A stretch of 64,000 nt of DNA from Escherichia phage A221 (ON862890.1), one strand, 5' to 3'; numbered from the stretch's first letter, positions 3,367 through 49,884 are shown. The notes: generated from the letters alone by a model not told the origin. Program-made: numbers and translations.

Positions 3367-3932
3367 TGTACCCAAATCTTGAATTCTTTACGGGGCGCAA
3401 ACGCTCCGGTAAGGACTTCTGTTTGGAGTCCCTCATCAGCTATCACCAACTACAGGGTGATATGGACATACAGCGCCTTTCTTTCTCTGATGAACTGCGC
3501 CGTGTAGCCAACTACATCTACCCATGGCTCCCAGCGGAGGTAGAGGATGCCGTGAAGGACGTTCCTTACGTGCACCCTGATAACCCCAAGGGCTTAACTC
3601 CACGGCAGATCTGGCTTCATCTAGGCAGCGATACGGGCTTGCGTTACGTACAACCCGATCTGTTCCTGGCATTCTTCAAGCGCTTCCAGCTTCCTCTGGT
3701 AGAGCAGAACCCCCACGTCCATTATATCGTGAGCGATCTGCGTACCCCTCAGGAATATGAATGGGCGCTGAGTACGAAATGTCCTATCACCCGTATTTCA
3801 AAGGCCGACCGTGCTGGTATCATAGAGGATGATATAGAGGCTTTCATTGACCAAATGAAAGTGGACTACGAATTCCTCAATCCATTTGATGGTTGGGAAC
3901 CGTTCGTTAAATTCTACGGAGAACGTAAATGA
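3363..3932 (+). CDS. deoxynucleoside monophosphate kinase (T4 gp1 family)
   Basis: TGRKRSGKDF P-loop and YIVSDLRTPQEYEWA match T4 gp1 SGVKRSGKD / YIVPDTRQDHE; ATGA overlap with upstream gene. Confidence 0.7.
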   Translation: MMYPNLEFFTGRKRSGKDFCLESLISYHQLQGDMDIQRLSFSDELRRVANYIYPWLPAEVEDAVKDVPYVHPDNPKGLTPRQIWLHLGSDTGLRYVQPDLFLAFFKRFQLPLVEQNPHVHYIVSDLRTPQEYEWALSTKCPITRISKADRAGIIEDDIEAFIDQMKVDYEFLNPFDGWEPFVKFYGERK

Positions 3933-4483
3933 TCACAGCAGGGCATATCAAAAGCCTGCTCGAACTCCAAAAGGCCACCAACGTGGCCTACTTTGGGGAA
4001 GAGTGGAAGAATGTATGGAGTCAGAACGCAGTCATCAACTCTATCTATCGTGAGTGGGCAGAGTTCCTTGATGAAACCACCCGTGACTGGAAGGTCTATG
4101 GCAACGACATCGGGTTTGACCATACGAACGCAGTTTATGAACTGGTGGACGTGGTACACTTCATGTTGTGCTTCATCCTTGTGGACCGCACCAAAGGTGA
4201 GATCGAAGAAGAATTTGAAGTCCTTAGTAATCGCGAATTCACCCCATCTGCTTTGGGTGTTGTAGGGCATCGCAATGTTACGTACCGCCTTGGGCAATTC
4301 ATGAACGATCCTTGCGTTGAGACTCTCATGTTCTTCCTGTCGTCTGCGTGTTCTTATATGGAGATCGACATTGAGACTTACATACTGGCACACAAACGCA
4401 AGAACGATCGCAATCGCCTGCGTGCTGCTGGTGGCGCGGATTACGATAAGTCCGCAGAAACCCCTCTGACCCTGGAGTTCTAA
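3929..4483 (+). CDS. MazG-like dNTP pyrophosphohydrolase (T4 gp56 dCTPase-type role)
   Basis: ELVDVVHFMLCF motif like T4 gp56 ELVDIFHFVLNMF; coupled to flanking genes by overlapping stop/start. Confidence 0.5.
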   Translation: MITAGHIKSLLELQKATNVAYFGEEWKNVWSQNAVINSIYREWAEFLDETTRDWKVYGNDIGFDHTNAVYELVDVVHFMLCFILVDRTKGEIEEEFEVLSNREFTPSALGVVGHRNVTYRLGQFMNDPCVETLMFFLSSACSYMEIDIETYILAHKRKNDRNRLRAAGGADYDKSAETPLTLEF

Positions 4484-12989: not shown

Positions 12990-13206
12990 CAAGAAGTACA
13001 TGTACAAGGTTCTGCTGAGCCTCGGGGTGTCACAATCTGGGCTGGCTCGTTTATTGGATTGTTCTAATGTTGTGAACTACTGGGCGAAGGGTTATCGTGT
13101 TGTCCCCCGCTCCTTCCGTCGCTTCATCCTGGTGTTACAGTTCATCAAGAAGAAAGGGCTGATGGAAGAGTTATTGCAATTTATTAAAGAAGAGGAACGC
13201 AAATGA
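12955..13206 (+). CDS. small helix-turn-helix-like protein (start uncertain)
   Basis: GVSQSGLARLLDCSNVVNYWAKG HTH-like segment; immediately upstream of HNH endonuclease gene. Confidence 0.35.
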   Translation: MSLRMKELPVNDKKYMYKVLLSLGVSQSGLARLLDCSNVVNYWAKGYRVVPRSFRRFILVLQFIKKKGLMEELLQFIKEEERK

Positions 13207-13898
13207 ACTATACCCGAGCGTTGGTTTCTATCCTTGAAAGGTCTTATTCTCGCAATCTGATTGGGTATTCAGAAAGACACCATAAAGAACCCAGGAGCTT
13301 GGGAGGGACTGATACTGCGGAGAATATTGCTGTTCTAACTGCTCGGGAACATTTCATAGTTCACAAACTTTTGGCCAAGATATTCAGTACGTCTCCTGCA
13401 TACGTGAAAATCTTTTCTTTGATGAGAAATATATCAAAATCACAAACTTCACGTCAATACGAAGAGTTCGCTCTCAGAAAATGGGAAAGGGTGAAGACAG
13501 CCAACAGTACTCCAGAGTTTAAACAAAAATGCAGTGAAAGATTCAAGGGGGTGGCGTTATCCCGTGAACACAGATCGAAAATTTCCGATTCGCTGATGGG
13601 CAGACCCAAATCAGATTCACAACGTTCCAAATTAAAACAAATCCATTCAAAGCCTTGGGAAAGTCCAAATGCGACACATACCCGCAAATATTGGGCTTTG
13701 GCAGGAATATTCTATGATTGGTGGGTAGCCGATGGTGCCAGGTTAGGCATATGTCGAAATGTAACGATGGTCAAGGAATTGGGGGTGGATCGCGCCGAAA
13801 TGACCGCCAAAAGTTGCATACAAAGATTTCAAAAAGGATGGGTGCCGTACAATGATGAGAATTGGGTTAAGTTTTTCGAGGAAATGAAAAATGCGTGA
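13203..13898 (+). CDS. HNH homing endonuclease (free-standing)
   Basis: HHKEPRSLGGTDTAENIAVLTAREHFIVH HNH motif; NUMOD-like EHRSKISDSLMG; paralog of 29335-30166. Confidence 0.8.
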   Translation: MNYTRALVSILERSYSRNLIGYSERHHKEPRSLGGTDTAENIAVLTAREHFIVHKLLAKIFSTSPAYVKIFSLMRNISKSQTSRQYEEFALRKWERVKTANSTPEFKQKCSERFKGVALSREHRSKISDSLMGRPKSDSQRSKLKQIHSKPWESPNATHTRKYWALAGIFYDWWVADGARLGICRNVTMVKELGVDRAEMTAKSCIQRFQKGWVPYNDENWVKFFEEMKNA

Positions 13899-16513: not shown

Positions 16514-17902
16514 TTAAACCTTCTGTGCTTGGCCTTTCTCAATCGCCTGAGGAGTAGTGGTGGAAGCAGTTGTCTGATTGGTCTGAGGTGGAAGCACCTG
16601 CTCCAGCAAACTGTCCTTGGCAATCTCAGCGATGCACTGATAATCTTTGGTCAGGCGGGAAATCTTGTGACGCACTTTGGTCACGATATAGTGGCCTGTA
16701 GATAGCTTACTTAACTCTGCCAGGTTTTCGTTCTTCTTAGGACGGTTGGACTGGTCTTCGACGTAGAACACCTGACCGACGTTCAGGCGGTTATCACCAA
16801 CGAGCAACACGCGCATCACAGTGCTGGCAAGACTGAAGTTGATAACACGACGAGCATAATCAATCTGCTCCGCTCCATCCGGCTGGGCTTCAATGTAACG
16901 GACGTTCTGACGATTGAATTCATCTGAGAACATTGGGAACGGATCAAGGTGAGCCGTCTCTGCAAACCACTCAGTATAGATGCGCTGTGTTGGGGTAACT
17001 GTCTTGGTCTCAAAGTCGTAGACGCGCTCGTTCACCGCCAGGACATCGCGGTAGTTTGCCATGAACTGGTCACGCGCCAGCTTCTTCTCTGCCTTGATGA
17101 TCGTGCGCATAAAGCGCTCAGAGTTGAAGTTGTTATCCTGCATGAGCGGCGCGTCCTGAGGATCACGGAACAACTTGTTCTGCTGAGCTAGTTCCTGCTT
17201 CTCTTCTGCTGTCAATGACTGGCTGCCCTGGTTGAACAACGTCGTCAGGCTCTTGAAGTGATAGCCATTGAAGTCTTCATAGAACACGAATGGCATGAAC
17301 AATTCGTCATAAGAACGGCTCGCCATATAATCAATAGATCGCAGCACGGGCCAGAGCGGGGTGGCGAACCGCTCTTGAATTCCATATGAAGGGTCGATGT
17401 CTTCGAACTTGGTGCGCGACTCCAGCTGATTGAAGATTGTCTTCGCCATGTCAGAATACGAACCGTCAAGACCGAGGGAGCATCGGATCATGCTGTCCTT
17501 ATAGGCATCGGTGGTCACCATGTGCAACCAGAATGCTTTCTTGGACGAGCTGTTGGACTCATCAGCTACACGCCCAACACGCGCTACGCGCAGGGAGAGA
17601 GTGGTGTATTCCGAGGCCGCCGGACTCTTGAATGACACCACAACTTCTTCACCACCCAAGATAGGCATTGTGTCAAGAATGTCCCACCCCTCTTTTATCA
17701 AGACATTGGCTGTAAGTGATGGAGATGACTTCCCTTCAAGACCCAGATCCTGGAAGACGTTGAACTCCTCAAACAACGCCGTCAGGTCATATGGTGTTGG
17801 TGATCCACCCTGGGGTGTATGAGGGAGTATCGCCATATACTTCAGGTCAAATGTTGTTGACGGTGTTACAATACCGTCTTGGGTCTCTCTGTTTTCGATC
17901 AT
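16514..17902 (-). CDS. putative baseplate/tail structural protein
   Basis: 462 codons in structural block; no motif recognised. Confidence 0.35.
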   Translation of the reverse strand: MIENRETQDGIVTPSTTFDLKYMAILPHTPQGGSPTPYDLTALFEEFNVFQDLGLEGKSSPSLTANVLIKEGWDILDTMPILGGEEVVVSFKSPAASEYTTLSLRVARVGRVADESNSSSKKAFWLHMVTTDAYKDSMIRCSLGLDGSYSDMAKTIFNQLESRTKFEDIDPSYGIQERFATPLWPVLRSIDYMASRSYDELFMPFVFYEDFNGYHFKSLTTLFNQGSQSLTAEEKQELAQQNKLFRDPQDAPLMQDNNFNSERFMRTIIKAEKKLARDQFMANYRDVLAVNERVYDFETKTVTPTQRIYTEWFAETAHLDPFPMFSDEFNRQNVRYIEAQPDGAEQIDYARRVINFSLASTVMRVLLVGDNRLNVGQVFYVEDQSNRPKKNENLAELSKLSTGHYIVTKVRHKISRLTKDYQCIAEIAKDSLLEQVLPPQTNQTTASTTTPQAIEKGQAQKV

Positions 17903-21956: not shown

Positions 21957-22270
21957 GACAATACTCCTTTCAGAGCCAAAACGGAAAGCACACCAATAAT
22001 CAACCATGTCGGGATAATCGGCTTGCAGTTCATGTGGGTTTCTCCACCTTCGATGTTCGGACTTCCTTGTATAAGAACGTGTTTACAGGAAGCTCTGAAC
22101 GTCATTACACAGCCCATCAACACAATCGGCCTGATATAATAACCCGTTTTAGTTTGCTTCACGATACATGGAGAGGAGAAGCGCAGATATGGATCCCCTT
22201 TCCGGTAGCCTGTGATTGTGACCTTCTGCACTTCAGAAGGCACTTTTTGGCCAGGAAAATAAATTTTCAT
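21953..22270 (-). CDS. membrane-anchored hypothetical protein
   Basis: C-terminal TM IIPTWLIIGVLSVLAL. Confidence 0.4.
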   Translation of the reverse strand: MKIYFPGQKVPSEVQKVTITGYRKGDPYLRFSSPCIVKQTKTGYYIRPIVLMGCVMTFRASCKHVLIQGSPNIEGGETHMNCKPIIPTWLIIGVLSVLALKGVLS

Positions 22271-22845
22271 ATTTCAATCCCCAGATTGGTGTATAACAAC
22301 TCAGACAGGGTTACAGGGCGCTTGAATTGTTCCCAACTACAGTTCAGGTATTCACGTTCTTCACGCATTTCACTGTGAAGATGACCATGGATATTATACG
22401 CCCAGCGGTCTAATTGATAAGGAACGTGAGTGGTCAGCACACGACCAACCGGAGTATCACGCTCATACATCGCACCAAAGGAGCTAATCTATCCCTCTTG
22501 ATATAGCTTCATCAACATCTTGAAGCTGTCATGGTTGCCTTGCGCCACCCTGATGATAAAGTTCGGTCGCCAGTCATCGGGAACCGGGCGGCGCTTGAAC
22601 TCATCAATATTCCGCTTGGCACCCTCGCGCATCAGGCGAATGAACCCCTCAGCCCCGATGAAGCAGATGTCGCCTGCAAGTTCAAGGACGTCTCGTGACT
22701 TCAGCCCCTGAAAGATACTGTCGATAACTGCAGCATCATGCGCCTCTTGGGTATCGAACCCACGGGGCTTGAAGATCTTCTTGTGCCCAAGGTGGGTGTC
22801 TCCCAGATACTTCACAATTCCTGCCATTATGGTCTCCTCAACCAT
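22267..22845 (-). pseudogene. calcineurin-like metallophosphoesterase interrupted by in-frame TAG
   Basis: N-part has GDTHLGH, LAGDI, GNHD; C-part has IHGHLH; joined in same frame through amber at 22489-22491 (...KLYQEG*ISSFGAMYERD...). Confidence 0.6.
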
Positions 22846-24764: not shown

Positions 24765-25003
24765 GCGTACTGTCTCCATTCAATAATGCTGTTGTCAACA
24801 CATGACACCTGGATGATGCCTGTGTGGTGGTGATAATCAGTCATCTGCATGATAAAGTTGTTCCCATTGCGGATAATGGTGTTGACAACGATACCCTTGG
24901 CAGCAAGGCGTATTACAATGGCAGTGCAAAGGCGGTCCATGTAACCGGACACAGAACCTGGTTCGAAGCATCGCTCGAACAGATTTTCAAATTCTGGGCT
25001 CAT
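24761..25003 (-). CDS. hypothetical protein
   Basis: 80 codons. Confidence 0.35.
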   Translation of the reverse strand: MSPEFENLFERCFEPGSVSGYMDRLCTAIVIRLAAKGIVVNTIIRNGNNFIMQMTDYHHHTGIIQVSCVDNSIIEWRQYA

Positions 25004-25053
25004 TTGATGTTACCAAACAAGGGGTCGAGGCGGTAATAATACCGCCTTTTTCT

Positions 25054-25464
25054 TCAATAGAGGTCTTCGGAAAAGAGTTCGCGGAAAGGGGTTGTCTTCA
25101 GGCGCACCTGATTGATCTGTCCAGCTTCACGGGCTACGATGCATGCCTCTTCACGAGTGAGGAAGTTGCCCTGGTTGTCGATGAATCCCTGTTCGCGGGT
25201 ATGGGTGGATTTAATGACGCCTGCCTCTTTCAGGATCTTGAGCTGACTGTTCATGAATTTGCTATGGTGACGGTCGGCAACGACGATTACATCACCATAT
25301 TTGTTGGCGGCAGCGACCACACGGCGCTCCCAGGCACCTTCGGCAGGAAGTTCACGAGTGTACAATGGAATCATCGTATCACCGATGTCATCCCCCTTCA
25401 CCTGTGAGAACAACTTGCCTTCAGTTCCCGTTGGGAGTTCACGAAAATATCCCAGTAATTTCAT
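25054..25464 (-). CDS. hypothetical protein
   Basis: 136 codons. Confidence 0.45.
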   Translation of the reverse strand: MKLLGYFRELPTGTEGKLFSQVKGDDIGDTMIPLYTRELPAEGAWERRVVAAANKYGDVIVVADRHHSKFMNSQLKILKEAGVIKSTHTREQGFIDNQGNFLTREEACIVAREAGQINQVRLKTTPFRELFSEDLY

Positions 25465-26069: not shown

Positions 26070-26110
26070 AGCACAACCCTCCAGGTGAGGAGGGGCGAAC
26101 CCCTCCGATG

Positions 26111-27443: not shown

Positions 27444-29342
27444 TTATTCATCCTCAGTTTCAAATAGGCAAACATCGCTAAACCAGGTTTTGCGGTAATC
27501 GGCGGCCTCATCACCGAAGCCATTCTTCAGTGACTGTTGATAGCCATCGTCCAGCGTGACCGTCGTAGTATACGCATCCAGGTTGTTTAGAATACGTTTG
27601 AAGTCTTCAGTGCTGTTACCGCCAAGACCTTTCAGATATTTCTTCTTCGTGATCTTCTTGGCATCAGGTGTCTTCAGGAACTCCTCATACTCTGCGTTGT
27701 TCATGAACTCATACATCACCTTACCACACCACACACGCATGTAAGGGGTGCGCAGGAGCTTCAGTCTGCCCTGACGGACGTACTCCGGCCAGTAGGTGCA
27801 ATACAGGGTGATCAACAACCCACGGATGTGGATGCCGTCATCGTCCGCATCGGTAGCCACAACAGTCTGTGGGTAACGGGTGATATCAAGGGGCTGGCCT
27901 GGCACTGCGCCGCCATGGATCGTACACAGGTTCTTGAACTCTTCATTGTTCATCACCTTTGAGCGCGGGGCGTTCAGGCAGTTGATGAACTTACCACGAA
28001 GCGGGAACAACCCGATCTTCTTGGTGTCGCGGGCGTTCAGGATAGGATTGGAGGCACTATCACCCTCTGTCAGCAACAGGGAGCATCCGCTGCGGTCACC
28101 ACGGGCGGTCGCCGGGTAATACTTCTCAATCTCACGATAATCCCGCTTGCTGATGTCCTTCTTGGCCTTTTCAAACTCAGCATCGTCCTGCTCATTGCGC
28201 AGGGAAGCCAGTTCTTTGCTCAGACCAGCCGTAACGAACTCAAGCGCCTTGCGGATCAGTTTATCACTGGGCTTGTACGACGTACCGAACTGGCTGACAG
28301 GAGTGGTCATGCGCTCCTTGGTCTGGCTGTCAAAGCGCGGGTTGTTGATGTCGGCGGCGATGAACAAGGACATGTGGTTCTTGATCATTGCTGGCTTCAG
28401 TTCGGTCTTGAACTTCTTCACCAGCTGGGGACGAATCGCTGCCACGATCTGGTCAGCAACATAATCAACGTGAGGACCACCGATGTGGGTGGCAATAGAG
28501 TTCACGTATGATGCGTGCATGAACGTACCGGATGAAGGGGCTACAGCAACAGACCAATCCCCGGTTTCGTCAACAGCCGAACCAGCATGGAAGTAATCAA
28601 CGAAGTGGCCAAAGCGGTCAATCCGGATTTGCTTCCCATTGAGAACAATCTTCAGGCGCGGGTTACACGCAGCCACTTCAAACGCGCGGCGATAGATCAT
28701 CAGCAGGTTGTTCTGGTCAAGTCCTTTGACGCCCAGACGAGCATAGTCAGGGATCCAGGCGATGGATGTGCCGGGACTGTTCACGTTGCTGATGACTGGG
28801 TTAGATTTCTTGCTCATGTTGTCTTCAAACGTCTGAGTATAAGACTTCTTGCCGTCATTAGTCGTGACGCGGAACCATTTGGAGAACACGTTGACGAGGG
28901 ACGCCCCTTCGCCATTCTGACCACCGGACTTCTGGTTGTTGTACTCTTCGTCTTCGTCGTTGAAGTTCGATCCCGCAAACAATTCTGAAAATAACATTTC
29001 TGGCAACCACATACCAGATTCATGCTTGACCACAGGGATACCCCCGTTGTCAGCAACGATGATTTGACCGTTCATCGGGGAAACTGTGACGGTGATTTCC
29101 GTCAGGGATTTACCCTCAGGGGTCTTGCTGTGGTCAACACAGTTGGTGATGATTTCATCAAACTGTTTGATAAGAGCGGGGTTATATTCAAAATTGTCTT
29201 TAAACACAACTTTGTCTTTGCTGAGATCATATACCCAAGCCATCCCGACAGAAGAACGGATACTCCCTAGATGGCGCTCTGGGCGAAGGAGTATATGCTC
29301 GATGTGTGAGAGCTTTTTGTATTTTCTGTTTACATCAACCAT
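27444..29342 (-). CDS. 39: DNA topoisomerase II large subunit (T4 gp39 with gp60-equivalent region fused)
   Basis: GHKL ATPase N-terminus, Toprim-like LLLTEGDSA, KGLGGNSTEDF; 632 aa single ORF. Confidence 0.85.
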   Translation of the reverse strand: MVDVNRKYKKLSHIEHILLRPERHLGSIRSSVGMAWVYDLSKDKVVFKDNFEYNPALIKQFDEIITNCVDHSKTPEGKSLTEITVTVSPMNGQIIVADNGGIPVVKHESGMWLPEMLFSELFAGSNFNDEDEEYNNQKSGGQNGEGASLVNVFSKWFRVTTNDGKKSYTQTFEDNMSKKSNPVISNVNSPGTSIAWIPDYARLGVKGLDQNNLLMIYRRAFEVAACNPRLKIVLNGKQIRIDRFGHFVDYFHAGSAVDETGDWSVAVAPSSGTFMHASYVNSIATHIGGPHVDYVADQIVAAIRPQLVKKFKTELKPAMIKNHMSLFIAADINNPRFDSQTKERMTTPVSQFGTSYKPSDKLIRKALEFVTAGLSKELASLRNEQDDAEFEKAKKDISKRDYREIEKYYPATARGDRSGCSLLLTEGDSASNPILNARDTKKIGLFPLRGKFINCLNAPRSKVMNNEEFKNLCTIHGGAVPGQPLDITRYPQTVVATDADDDGIHIRGLLITLYCTYWPEYVRQGRLKLLRTPYMRVWCGKVMYEFMNNAEYEEFLKTPDAKKITKKKYLKGLGGNSTEDFKRILNNLDAYTTTVTLDDGYQQSLKNGFGDEAADYRKTWFSDVCLFETEDE

Positions 29343-30166
29343 TATTATCTCCGTAAAATTTCAACCAGGCGGGATCTTCTTTTGGTATCCAACCTTTCTG
29401 AAATTTAGATATACAAGTTTGAGCTGTGGCCTTAGAACAAACAGAGCTTAACCCGGTTTCTTTCAACATTAAACAATAACGGTTCTTCACTTTGTCTTCA
29501 CCGTTACTATACCACCATTCAAAGAATTCACCAGCCAAGAGCCATTGTCGGGATTTACCCGTCTTTACGACAGTCGGGTGTTCCCCAAGGTTGTATGTTA
29601 TTCATGGGATTGTTCTGGCGCCACATAGCAGAATACCTCTCCCTTTCTTCTGGTCGCCTCATCCGTTCGGTGACTGATTTGGTAAGATTGGCTTTGTGTG
29701 CTTCGGAGTGTGGTATCCCTTTCCTGGATTTTGACAACCTGCGCCTTGATTCGTCATTCCAAGTGTAACCTCTCAAGCTATCCGCACGTTTCTTCTGTAC
29801 TTCTGGGTTCAATGAGTTTTTCTTGGATTGCTTACGACAACGTTCCTTTTGTTCATCAGATGACATCACTTCTTTCATTCTGGTGGAATTATTTCTCCTC
29901 AATTCCCCAAACTCTTTGTTGTTCCTAGACATGTTGTTCATCCCAGTCCATGCCTTCCTGATACCGGGGTTGAGTGGTTTTGTTCTCCAAAGTAGGTGAT
30001 GTACGACATAATGTTCTTCTGGTGTCAACCATACAAGATTAGAGAAGTGGTTAGTGCCACCCAAGCACACAGGGATTATATGGTGGCGTTCTTGATAAAC
30101 GCCATCCATTTTACCTCTCTGTATTGCTCTCTGTATGAGAGCGTCTAAGATGATTTCGTATTTCAT
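29335..30166 (-). pseudogene. HNH homing endonuclease, frameshifted
   Basis: ERHHIIPVCLGGTNHFSNLVWLTPEEHYVVH plus NUMOD-like repeats; paralog's C-terminal region continues in another frame (track ORF 29335-29538 from TTG); shift near 29555-29580. Confidence 0.7.
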
Positions 30167-30744
30167 AAGCCAAATTTGCTACGCCACTTTTCAACCTTGT
30201 GTTCAATAGCGTGCTCCACTTTAATGCGAGTGGCCATCAAAGAGGATCCACGGATCGCCCCTTCCCCACACCCCATGCGCGCAACATGCTTGATTAGGTC
30301 ATTGACAAGATGATCCAATCTGTCTTGACTGCGATAAGGCTGGTTGCACAATCGGATAATCCGGCCATGATAATGATGAATAAGATTCAGATGCTTTTGA
30401 GGATCACGATCAATCAGACGGAACCAGTCTTCTTCCAACAGATTAGAAGAAATATCGTTCACTGTCGCCATGTGGTTGATGACAGAGTCGATCATTTCGG
30501 CCTTGTTCAGAGAGCCGCGCATTTGGACGTCGTCATAATCCATGACGTACAGAAGGTCAATAGCAGAGATAATGACATCAGCAACTTCGCCATTCAACGG
30601 CTCGGAAGATACTATGCCATGAAACACATCAGACAGTTCACAGATCTCTTCACCTAGTTTGTTCAGAACAAACACAGGCGAACGGTCTGGGGTATGAGCA
30701 GTGCAGTCATAAGAAGCGTCGACGATAGTGTGTAGAAATTTCAT
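30163..30744 (-). CDS. hypothetical protein (possible MazG-like fold)
   Basis: EEICELSDVFHG...EVADVIISAIDLLYVM weakly MazG-like. Confidence 0.4.
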   Translation of the reverse strand: MKFLHTIVDASYDCTAHTPDRSPVFVLNKLGEEICELSDVFHGIVSSEPLNGEVADVIISAIDLLYVMDYDDVQMRGSLNKAEMIDSVINHMATVNDISSNLLEEDWFRLIDRDPQKHLNLIHHYHGRIIRLCNQPYRSQDRLDHLVNDLIKHVARMGCGEGAIRGSSLMATRIKVEHAIEHKVEKWRSKFGL

Positions 30745-31244
30745 TTCAAAGTTCCTTGTATGCGGAGACGATTAATGTGGGCAATGATATAGTCCATAGA
30801 GTTTTGAAAACTGTATTTCCCGTTCTGAACATATGCATGGATCAGGGGTAGGCGACTGTACGCCAATCTGATCTTCAGACGTTCAGGCATTGTCTGGAGT
30901 TTCATGCTAGTTGCAAATAGGATATCGCGCTTGAATTCTTCGGTAGACGGGTCCAGGACAATGAAGCGAGAAGCCGCCAATCCCTGTCCATATTGCTTGG
31001 CCTCATAACCGTCGAGCAGGCGCAGGTTGTCATCCCTATACTTCAGCCAATACCAGTACCCCTCCATGGAGTTAAACACACCATGTTCATGGGTAGTCAT
31101 TGGATGATGGGTAAAATGCGAGAGGAAGCGCCCGAGTTCCGTCTGGCTCCGGCTGTAGATGTTGAAGTGATTCTTGCCCTCTGTTGCAGGGGTCATCTTG
31201 TTCTGTGGAACGCTCATTAACAGCATCATGATGTAGTTTCTCAA
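30741..31244 (-). CDS. hypothetical protein
   Basis: 167 codons, ATGA-coupled. Confidence 0.45.
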   Translation of the reverse strand: MRNYIMMLLMSVPQNKMTPATEGKNHFNIYSRSQTELGRFLSHFTHHPMTTHEHGVFNSMEGYWYWLKYRDDNLRLLDGYEAKQYGQGLAASRFIVLDPSTEEFKRDILFATSMKLQTMPERLKIRLAYSRLPLIHAYVQNGKYSFQNSMDYIIAHINRLRIQGTLK

Positions 31245-31271
31245 ATCAAAGTATTGCTGTGTGTAGTGAAA

Positions 31272-31469
31272 TTACTTCTTCATGCAGCCCATATAACTAC
31301 AGGCCAAGCCGATAGCGGCGAATACGATAGCCAGGACAAATCGGGTTATCTGCATTTGTGGTATTGTGAGCAGCCCGATCACGTTTTCGATCGTCAGGAA
31401 GAAACACACCCCAGCGACGACACCGAATTTGAACGAGTTTCGTTCTTTGTAGATCTTGAACCTGAACAT
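31272..31469 (-). CDS. small membrane protein
   Basis: Two hydrophobic helices in 65 codons. Confidence 0.35.
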   Translation of the reverse strand: MFRFKIYKERNSFKFGVVAGVCFFLTIENVIGLLTIPQMQITRFVLAIVFAAIGLACSYMGCMKK

Positions 31470-49419: not shown

Positions 49420-49884
49420 CGCTTATGTTCAGGGATGCTCGCTATTTCATCCCCCGTGTTCGTCATTCAGTTTACCGAACACTGCTGTATGTCACCATAC
49501 AGGCCAGACTATATCACAATCTCCAGAACTGTCTAGAGATTCTCTCCATTTCGAGGCGCTTGCCCCTACTCTACTCGCTTCAGATCAGACGCTTAGTCGT
49601 CGGTCTTGCTTTCGATAGTCGTTGAACCTTGTCACCCACTACTTCAAGGAAATCATCTGGGTTTAACCCAGCGTAACCAAAGAGTCGTTTGAAGTTTCTT
49701 GCCAACTTGCCCCACTCATTCTGGCAAACATTTCCTTCATGACCTTACTCCTTCACCGAGGTTACAGAGTATTTAGATCTTCGTGGCCGACCTTGGCTGC
49801 TGATTATCTCTAAAGAGACTTCCCAGCAATTAAGAGAGTTATTCGATGGTTGTCGCCAACCAAAGCCCCTATGCTGCTAACTTA
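49420..49884 (-). ncRNA. group I self-splicing intron (no ORF) in DNA polymerase gene
   Basis: On minus strand: P-like AATTGCTGGGAAG, Q-like AATCAGCAGCC, R-like GGTTCAACGACTA, S-like GATATAGTC (P7 GACTA/TAGTC); exon 1 ends in U, intron ends in G; splice restores DLNSLYPHII. Confidence 0.75.

Follow-up and report, generated by a model that had tools for sequence, protein, structure and literature searches.

Escherichia phage A221 (ON862890.1) carries, directly beside its topoisomerase II large-subunit gene, a frameshifted copy of an endonuclease gene that is intact in its relatives and differs from theirs by a single additional G. The gene is the ortholog of F-LimI from Dickeya phage LIMEstone1 and belongs to the T4 Mob-type free-standing HNH homing endonucleases. 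We consider it likely that the extra base is a genuine and very young mutation. The window that was analysed is a stretch of 64,000 nucleotides of this phage, and all coordinates refer to it.

The affected gene is encoded on the minus strand, between the gene for a MazG-like pyrophosphatase (RefSeq annotation; 30163-30744, minus strand), where the cassette described below has its sharp left border, and the topoisomerase gene (27444-29342, minus strand). From the ORF list and the translations, its first part is a truncated ORF of 203 aa (29555-30166, minus strand) with an ATG at 30166 and a TAA at 29555-29557. The product has the N-terminus MKYEIIL...ERHHIIPVCLGG, and the start of the ORF, MKYEIILDALIQRAIQRGKMDGVYQERHHIIPVCLGGTNHFSNLVWLTPEEHYVVHHLL, represents the HNH core. 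The remainder of the gene, corresponding to residues 195-276 of the intact protein, persists as an out-of-frame C-terminal remnant (29335-29582, minus strand; translations and PHROG 25551). It includes the block FQKGWIPKEDPAWLKF, which is encoded in another frame than the 203-aa ORF, and this frame is open from 29598 to a TGA at 29335-29337. Neither the 203-aa product, nor the 67-aa C-terminal ORF, nor the topoisomerase protein of A221 has an exact match on record.

Both ends of the gene overlap with its neighbours. The endonuclease ATG overlaps the TGA of the upstream MazG-like gene as ATGA (30163-30166), and by direct reading of the sequence the stop of the intact endonuclease frame and the topoisomerase start share the 8-nt overlap ATGGTTGA (29335-29342, minus strand), so that the overlap with the topoisomerase start that had been proposed from the sequence alone is real. 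The latter arrangement is likewise annotated in relatives. With a position between two genes and overlapping stop and start codons, the endonuclease is free-standing. No Rfam intron was found at the endonuclease site, the sole group I intron of the 64-kb window being located at 49485-49872. A promoter and terminator scan of 29000-31400 gave signals no better than those of shuffled sequences, and the T4 late-promoter motif TATAAATA was not found near the endonuclease locus. The topoisomerase gene is intact and codes for a T4 gp39-like protein of 632 aa, as assigned by Pfam (DNA_gyraseB, TOPRIM_C, HATPase_c and Toprim, every one above cut-off) and by the annotation of relatives. A GGAG is found at 29349-29352, six bases 5′ of its ATG.

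Among relatives, a single gene fills the whole interval from the MazG-like to the topoisomerase gene. Full-length ORFs of 276 aa exist in PH4, RPN242, LIMEstone1, LPST94, JA15 and a contig labelled as E. coli. The annotated length is 831 nt (276 aa) in PH4 and LPST94, and 774 nt, from an internal ATG, in RPN242 and LIMEstone1. The 201-aa proteins of JA15 and of the E. coli contig were considered as further truncated copies and rejected, being start-codon choices on intact ORFs.

Alignment with RPN242, LIMEstone1, LPST94, maane and ZQ1 reveals only one length difference, which is CCTTGGGGAAC in A221 and CCTTGGGAAC in the others. The additional base is one G on the minus strand (C on the plus strand) in the run at 29583-29586, which is GGGG here and GGG in every relative aligned. 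In the indel list, PH4 is one base shorter than A221 at this same run, and the gene spans 831 nt in all of the 31 near-identical phage records with the full gene, compared to 832 nt in A221. The extra G puts all sequence past codon W194 in the +1 frame. The intact reading ...NNIQPW-EHPTVVKTGKSRQWLLAGEFFEWW... is replaced by ...NNIQPW-GTPDCRKDG-stop, which leaves 194 native residues followed by 9 out-of-frame residues; residues 195-276 are lost from the product. Compared to the intact orthologs, the frame disruption removes a conserved domain, which is the mark of a pseudogene. A frameshifted HNH endonuclease beside the topoisomerase II gene, with its C-terminal block in a different frame, had already been recognized in the sequence-only reading, and the ORF list, the translations and the single-frame orthologs confirm this. 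That reading had placed the shift near 29555-29580 at the GTAAAGACGGGTAAATCC tract, and here it has to be corrected. The tract (29551-29568) is the same in relatives, or has one substitution, including those with an intact ORF, and it merely contains the TAA that is met by the shifted frame.

The assignment to the HNH homing endonucleases, also part of the sequence-only reading, is well founded. The gene matches PHROG 655 ("homing endonuclease") with an E-value of 2.7e-66, and the 203-aa piece alone does so with 3e-50. In tblastn searches, the N-terminal 90-165 residues are matched by mobD, mobE or "mobile endonuclease" loci of T4-like phages with about 31-48% identity. The family is large, with more than 10,000 cluster representatives. 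A family alignment of 43 sequences shows E26, H28, H29, P32, G37, N43, E51, H52 and H56 to be invariant, and all of these HNH residues are located inside the 203-aa truncated ORF. The family profile matches the McrA HNH core (E-value 3.6e-4), and the AF2 model (pLDDT 94.6) has a beta-hairpin and a helix at residues 26-62 (strands 26-29 and 44-47, helix 49-62); a long helical linker then leads to a compact domain of helices at the C-terminus. It is this catalytic motif of the family alignment that bears out the HNH core, although the Pfam HNH models remain below their gathering thresholds (HNH_5 with 18 bits versus 27.5; HNH with 15.7-16.8 bits versus 21.4). The Pfam HNH models are insensitive to this subfamily. 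The NCBIfam search matched no family, and the single protein, when searched against PDB sequences, had no significant match.

The proposed NUMOD-like repeats are weak. NUMOD3 (PF07460) stays below its cut-off of 20.4 bits in the intact ortholog (10.9 bits) and in the paralog discussed below (14.5 bits); the distant homologs P0005 and P0006 do have PF07460. The basic linker is at best NUMOD3-like.

LIMEstone1 ORF12, named F-LimI, has been described as free-standing, as homologous to T4 MobB/C/D/E and as having topoisomerase II as its downstream gene (PMC3296691). In a table of the same paper, F-LimI is printed as "GIY-YIG" (PMC3296691), a label that is contradicted by its sequence, and a later classification assigns F-LimI to the main HNH group, together with T4 MobA-E (PMC5714182). 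The A221 and LIMEstone1 genes correspond in identity, in place, and in their ATGA and 8-nt overlaps, with 98.7% nucleotide identity. They differ in that the LIMEstone1 gene is in frame (831 nt) whereas the A221 copy has the extra G and leaves the native frame after W194. The activity of F-LimI itself is a predicted one.

The part that is lost from the A221 product is a domain in its own right. When searched alone, the C-terminal piece (EHPTVV...FQKGWIPKEDPAWLKFYGDNNG) matches PHROG 25551 with an E-value of 2.6e-32, and AF2 folds it into a small helical domain (pLDDT 82). The columns W, A, G, W, P, D and W are invariant in it, and the motifs PWE.P, W..AG.FY.WW and GW.P..D..W are common to the paralog and to distant full-length relatives. 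This 82-aa helical domain is presumed to bind DNA and to provide site specificity. As predicted from its ORF, the truncated product still has the HNH catalytic core with the basic linker and is devoid of the 82-aa conserved domain. Because the catalytic residues are kept but the presumed specificity domain is absent, homing activity has probably been lost in A221. We infer that the topoisomerase is unaffected, apart from any translational coupling to the endonuclease frame, which would no longer operate now that ribosomes terminate 213 nt upstream.

A second Mob-type HNH gene occurs in the window at 13203-13898 on the plus strand, upstream of a gp59-like helicase loader. It is an intact ORF coding for 231 aa, as had been proposed, and was assigned by BLASTP and by PHROG 655 (E-value 3.3e-53). 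In BLASTP, the alignment of its product with the intact ortholog of the frameshifted gene extends from end to end (29% identity, E-value 2e-37), and the C-terminal block that the two copies had been suggested to share is confirmed by the three motifs given above. The paralog is also sporadic: it is found in full in 9 records and is cleanly absent from ZQ1, AV101 and LHE287.

The region around the broken gene matches Ackermannviridae phages. The closest relatives are the E. coli Aglimvirinae phages PH4, PC3 and RPN242 and Salmonella phage vB_CECAV_050, with 99.5-99.7% identity across a 2-kb region around the gene; PH4 and PC3 have about 98% identity to A221 over 25 kb. Only 35 of the 190 Ackermannviridae records that match the 2-kb region have any part of the endonuclease gene. 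When the insertion site is compared with a close sibling that lacks the gene, AV101, an empty site is found, where a 49-nt spacer separates the MazG-like gene from the topoisomerase gene. Where it is present, the gene is 96-99.8% identical across Limestonevirus, Kuttervirus and the E. coli phages. Its MazG-like neighbour has 12-25 mismatches per 50 nt when compared to Limestonevirus or Kuttervirus, and in comparisons with other genera the mismatch density changes exactly at the endonuclease ATG. The border on the topoisomerase side is graded: there are 0-4 mismatches per 50 nt versus LIMEstone1 and LPST94 down to about 28950-29100, with rising numbers thereafter.

The comparison with AV101, which is devoid of the HNH gene, gives the complementary picture. 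Mismatches number 8-15 per 50 nt between 29342 and 28951 and 0-2 on both sides, with one identical patch inside this tract (29051-29150). The topoisomerase N-terminus that goes with the cassette is also different (MVDVNRKYKKLSH versus MSNKIDIERKYKKLTH). Because the mismatch profiles versus AV101 and versus LIMEstone1/LPST94 are complementary, the boundaries of a putative mobile cassette can be set at 30166 and about 28951. The cassette, as deduced from these profiles, is about 1.2 kb long and consists of the endonuclease gene and about 390 nt of co-converted topoisomerase 5′ end (28951-29342, minus strand). Sporadic presence, an identity above that of the flanks and a co-conversion tract, the three hallmarks of Mob-type mobility, all apply to this gene. 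The sequence-only reading had proposed a recent mobile-element invasion of an essential gene. Recent invasion is backed by the sporadic occurrence, the high identity across genera and the tract of about 390 nt; the position needs to be restated, as the element lies upstream of the topoisomerase gene and not inside it.

For T4 free-standing endonucleases, the cleavage sites have been described as lying in a conserved gene next door, with co-conversion of flanking markers during repair (PMC2988022). By analogy with these, the 5′ part of the topoisomerase gene in phages devoid of the cassette would be the cleavage target. In our reading, the gene forms a promoter-less cassette between the MazG-like and topoisomerase II large-subunit genes. 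Upon co-infection, the intact enzyme would nick or cut the topoisomerase gene of a cassette-less phage, in analogy to T4 MobE/MobA and SegG, and repair off the cassette-bearing genome would copy the endonuclease gene and, along with it, the first 390 nt or so of the topoisomerase gene. In A221, the extra G:C in the G3 run shifts the frame after W194 and would inactivate the enzyme; the topoisomerase gene is intact and has its own GGAG Shine-Dalgarno sequence. We take the change to be a genuine and very recent inactivating mutation in a selfish gene that would be under no selection where it is fixed in the population, which would correspond to the degeneration phase of the homing-endonuclease cycle.

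Several known systems resemble parts of this picture. T4 MobE, an HNH free-standing homing endonuclease encoded between nrdA and nrdB (review PMC2988022), has a homologous N-terminal HNH module, and its start overlaps the stop of the upstream gene. It too is a promoter-less cassette that adjoins a conserved DNA-metabolism gene, its likely target, and its flanks are co-converted. The two differ in target gene and in C-terminal domain, of which each Mob protein has its own. Nicking and homing have been demonstrated for T4 MobE, whereas for A221 and F-LimI they are inferred. The description of MobE is reportedly also attributable to Wilson and Edgell in 2009. T4 MobA is likewise an HNH Mob-type enzyme associated with the topoisomerase II large-subunit gene. 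However, MobA lies within that gene, which is split into 39 and 60 with a 50-nt bypass, whereas in A221 the topoisomerase gene is uninterrupted and the endonuclease is located upstream. The defunct I-TevIII of T4 provides a further parallel, as in both cases one phage has a truncated endonuclease gene and its relatives have the full one, but I-TevIII is intron-encoded, and the A221 lesion is a single base with nothing else changed.

Decay of this gene is not restricted to A221. In maane, codon 124 has changed from CAG to TAG and the gene is annotated as two genes. ZQ1 has suffered a 5′ deletion and has kept the last 270 nt only, and in 4HA11 an internal deletion has left a short remnant. P0024, called as a 67-aa protein, is a fusion of the first 33 and the last 34 residues. 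The remnant-bearing genomes ZQ1 and 4HA11 both retain the cassette-type topoisomerase 5′ end. Because decay has occurred independently in maane, ZQ1, 4HA11 and P0024, the frameshift in A221 fits a pattern of recurrent, independent degeneration. Homing endonuclease genes are said to pass through a cycle of invasion, degeneration and loss (the model of Goddard and Burt), and point lesions and deletions that arise independently across lineages are what the two have in common.

The main alternative to a young mutation is a sequencing or assembly error, in which case a homopolymer has been miscalled, the phage truly has GGG and its 276-aa endonuclease is intact and active. We regard this as the less likely reading. 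The difference is one base long and is located in a homopolymer, where sequencing errors fall, and GGGG is unique within a set of 34 sequences of the gene. The allele is absent from the other database sequences scanned: the exact pattern gave no match in viral, metagenome and genome contigs, one viral-contig match being to the in-frame GGG allele, and megablast against complete E. coli genomes gave no match. Nothing else has changed downstream, and at the amino-acid level the out-of-frame C-terminal part matches PH4 with 100% identity; this is equally expected of a very young mutation.

On the other hand, the run is short (3 to 4), and the assembly is not error-prone and gives no indication of homopolymer noise, because there is no further A221-specific frameshift in about 58 kb of coding sequence when compared with two genomes of about 98% identity. 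There are only two isolated indels with a length not divisible by three that are specific to A221 versus both PH4 and RPN242, this lesion and one at 16514, which falls into an 11-nt spacer between two genes. All other isolated indels versus PH4 map between annotated genes, according to coordinate mapping, and between the genes of this lineage real isolated indels are common. In the ORF-by-ORF comparison, the endonuclease is one of only two disrupted annotated genes. The other is an accessory gene with a TGG to TAG (amber) change at 22489-22491, which shows that real disruptive mutations do occur in this genome. The sole frameshift affects a gene for which, unlike most others, disruption is expected to be tolerated. 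A real mutation is favoured because this lesion is the only A221-specific coding frameshift in 64 kb. The weighing between mutation and error is a rough one.

Far less probable is a functional split, be it by +1 ribosomal frameshifting, by a G run that acts as an on/off switch, or by a nuclease-only fragment that has a role of its own with or without the C-terminal piece. A reciprocal change in RPN242, where a G run of the paralog (G4 versus G5 at 13785) is altered and the paralog is truncated, would be in line with a switch, and separately annotated C-terminal proteins are common enough to form PHROG 25551. However, all other copies are in a single frame, so that the shift site lacks conservation, and the separate C-terminal proteins that were inspected represent decay by nonsense mutation or deletion (maane P0016). 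The C-terminal ORF offers no start codon before a TTG, which is not preceded by a Shine-Dalgarno sequence, and a run of four G falls far short of what efficient slippage requires. Programmed +1 frameshifting of the prfB type was rejected, as the site is not conserved and CCU UGG GGA is devoid of slippery re-pairing, an A-site stop and an upstream Shine-Dalgarno stimulator. We would therefore give very little credence to the idea that short G runs of Ackermannviridae Mob-type genes are reversible switches (G3/G4 in the F-LimI copy, G5/G4 in the RPN242 paralog). If this were true, a phage population could carry the endonuclease gene in a silent, non-toxic state and reactivate it at a low rate; alternatively, the nuclease-only fragment would have a separate role.

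In summary, a young inactivating mutation in an F-LimI-type gene is the reading that we prefer. The gene and its family have already been described, frameshifted alleles are to be expected at some point in the history of such an element, and the finding is of little importance beyond annotation. Pending read support, annotation of the locus as a frameshifted F-LimI-type homing endonuclease pseudogene is preferable to annotation as two hypothetical proteins. For the cassette, a natural series is now available, which comprises the empty site and the intact, point-mutated, frameshifted, 5′-deleted and internally deleted forms. The bound of about 390 nt on co-conversion narrows the region of the topoisomerase gene in which the putative F-LimI cleavage site may lie.

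In the intact paralog of the frameshifted endonuclease gene at the F-LimI site, the second Mob-type HNH endonuclease gene, a run at position 13785 of the window consists of five G residues in the window and in phage PH4, versus four in the sister phage RPN242. The corresponding RPN242 ORF (about 24783-25382 in locus L005, our handle for RPN242 sequence) is annotated with only 600 nt versus 696. RPN242 thereby shows, reciprocally, a G-run frameshift in the endonuclease gene that is intact in the window. A small ORF upstream of the paralog (position 13108) has six C residues in RPN242 versus five.

A second disrupted accessory gene of the window is found on the minus strand at 22268-22845, where TGG has become TAG (amber) at about codon 119 (stop at 22489-22491). 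This lesion is a substitution, and a homopolymer change is not involved. The same gene is undisrupted in PH4 (PH4_000140) and RPN242 (gp022), where it codes for a 186-aa hypothetical protein, the motifs of which (GDTHLGH, GNHD, and HGHLH) look metallophosphoesterase-like upon inspection by eye.

The DNA polymerase gene is split by a group I intron without an ORF (49485-49872, minus strand; Rfam RF00028, 58.8 bits). PH4 agrees with the window at this site, while RPN242 carries about 730 nt more, with an 879-nt ORF. Two small differences are intergenic. At 26095 and 26100, in a stem-loop downstream of the topoisomerase genes, there is a paired one-base difference from RPN242, with both hairpin arms longer (GAGGGGCGAACCCCTC versus GAGGGCGAACCCTC); this is a compensatory change within the stem-loop. 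A window-specific one-base deletion at 16514 affects the 11-nt spacer separating two minus-strand genes, just past the stop of the upstream gene and ahead of the Shine-Dalgarno sequence (GAGGTG) belonging to the gene that follows.

Within the endonuclease mRNA, a hairpin of up to 9 pairs (GGCGTT-TATCAAG-AACGCC, 30082-30106) lies directly 3′ of an internal ATG at 30109, which is preceded by GAGAGG and has been chosen as start by several annotations. The hairpin may be a translational control element, as in other T4-type endonuclease genes, or may be due to chance.

In the paper on Dickeya phage LIMEstone1, Table 1 uses the name F-LimI on two rows, ORF17 and ORF12 (PMC3296691). It labels ORF12 as GIY-YIG, yet the sequence is clearly HNH, and the table looks erroneous here.

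Escherichia phage AV101 lacks F-LimI but carries an additional ORF of 447 nt (3777-4223 in locus L008, our handle for AV101 sequence), located between the genes for the large and medium subunits of the topoisomerase. This ORF is absent from PH4, RPN242, and the window. Salmonella phages vB_STmST313_KE31 (PP856729.1, 10010-10840) and vB_Sen_ST2 (OR710291.1, 48622-49401) have a divergent allele of the F-LimI-type endonuclease, with identities of about 69% in amino acids and 71% in nucleotides. In both it occupies the same position, with the MazG-like gene on one side and the topoisomerase on the other, and this suggests an older or separate cassette lineage.
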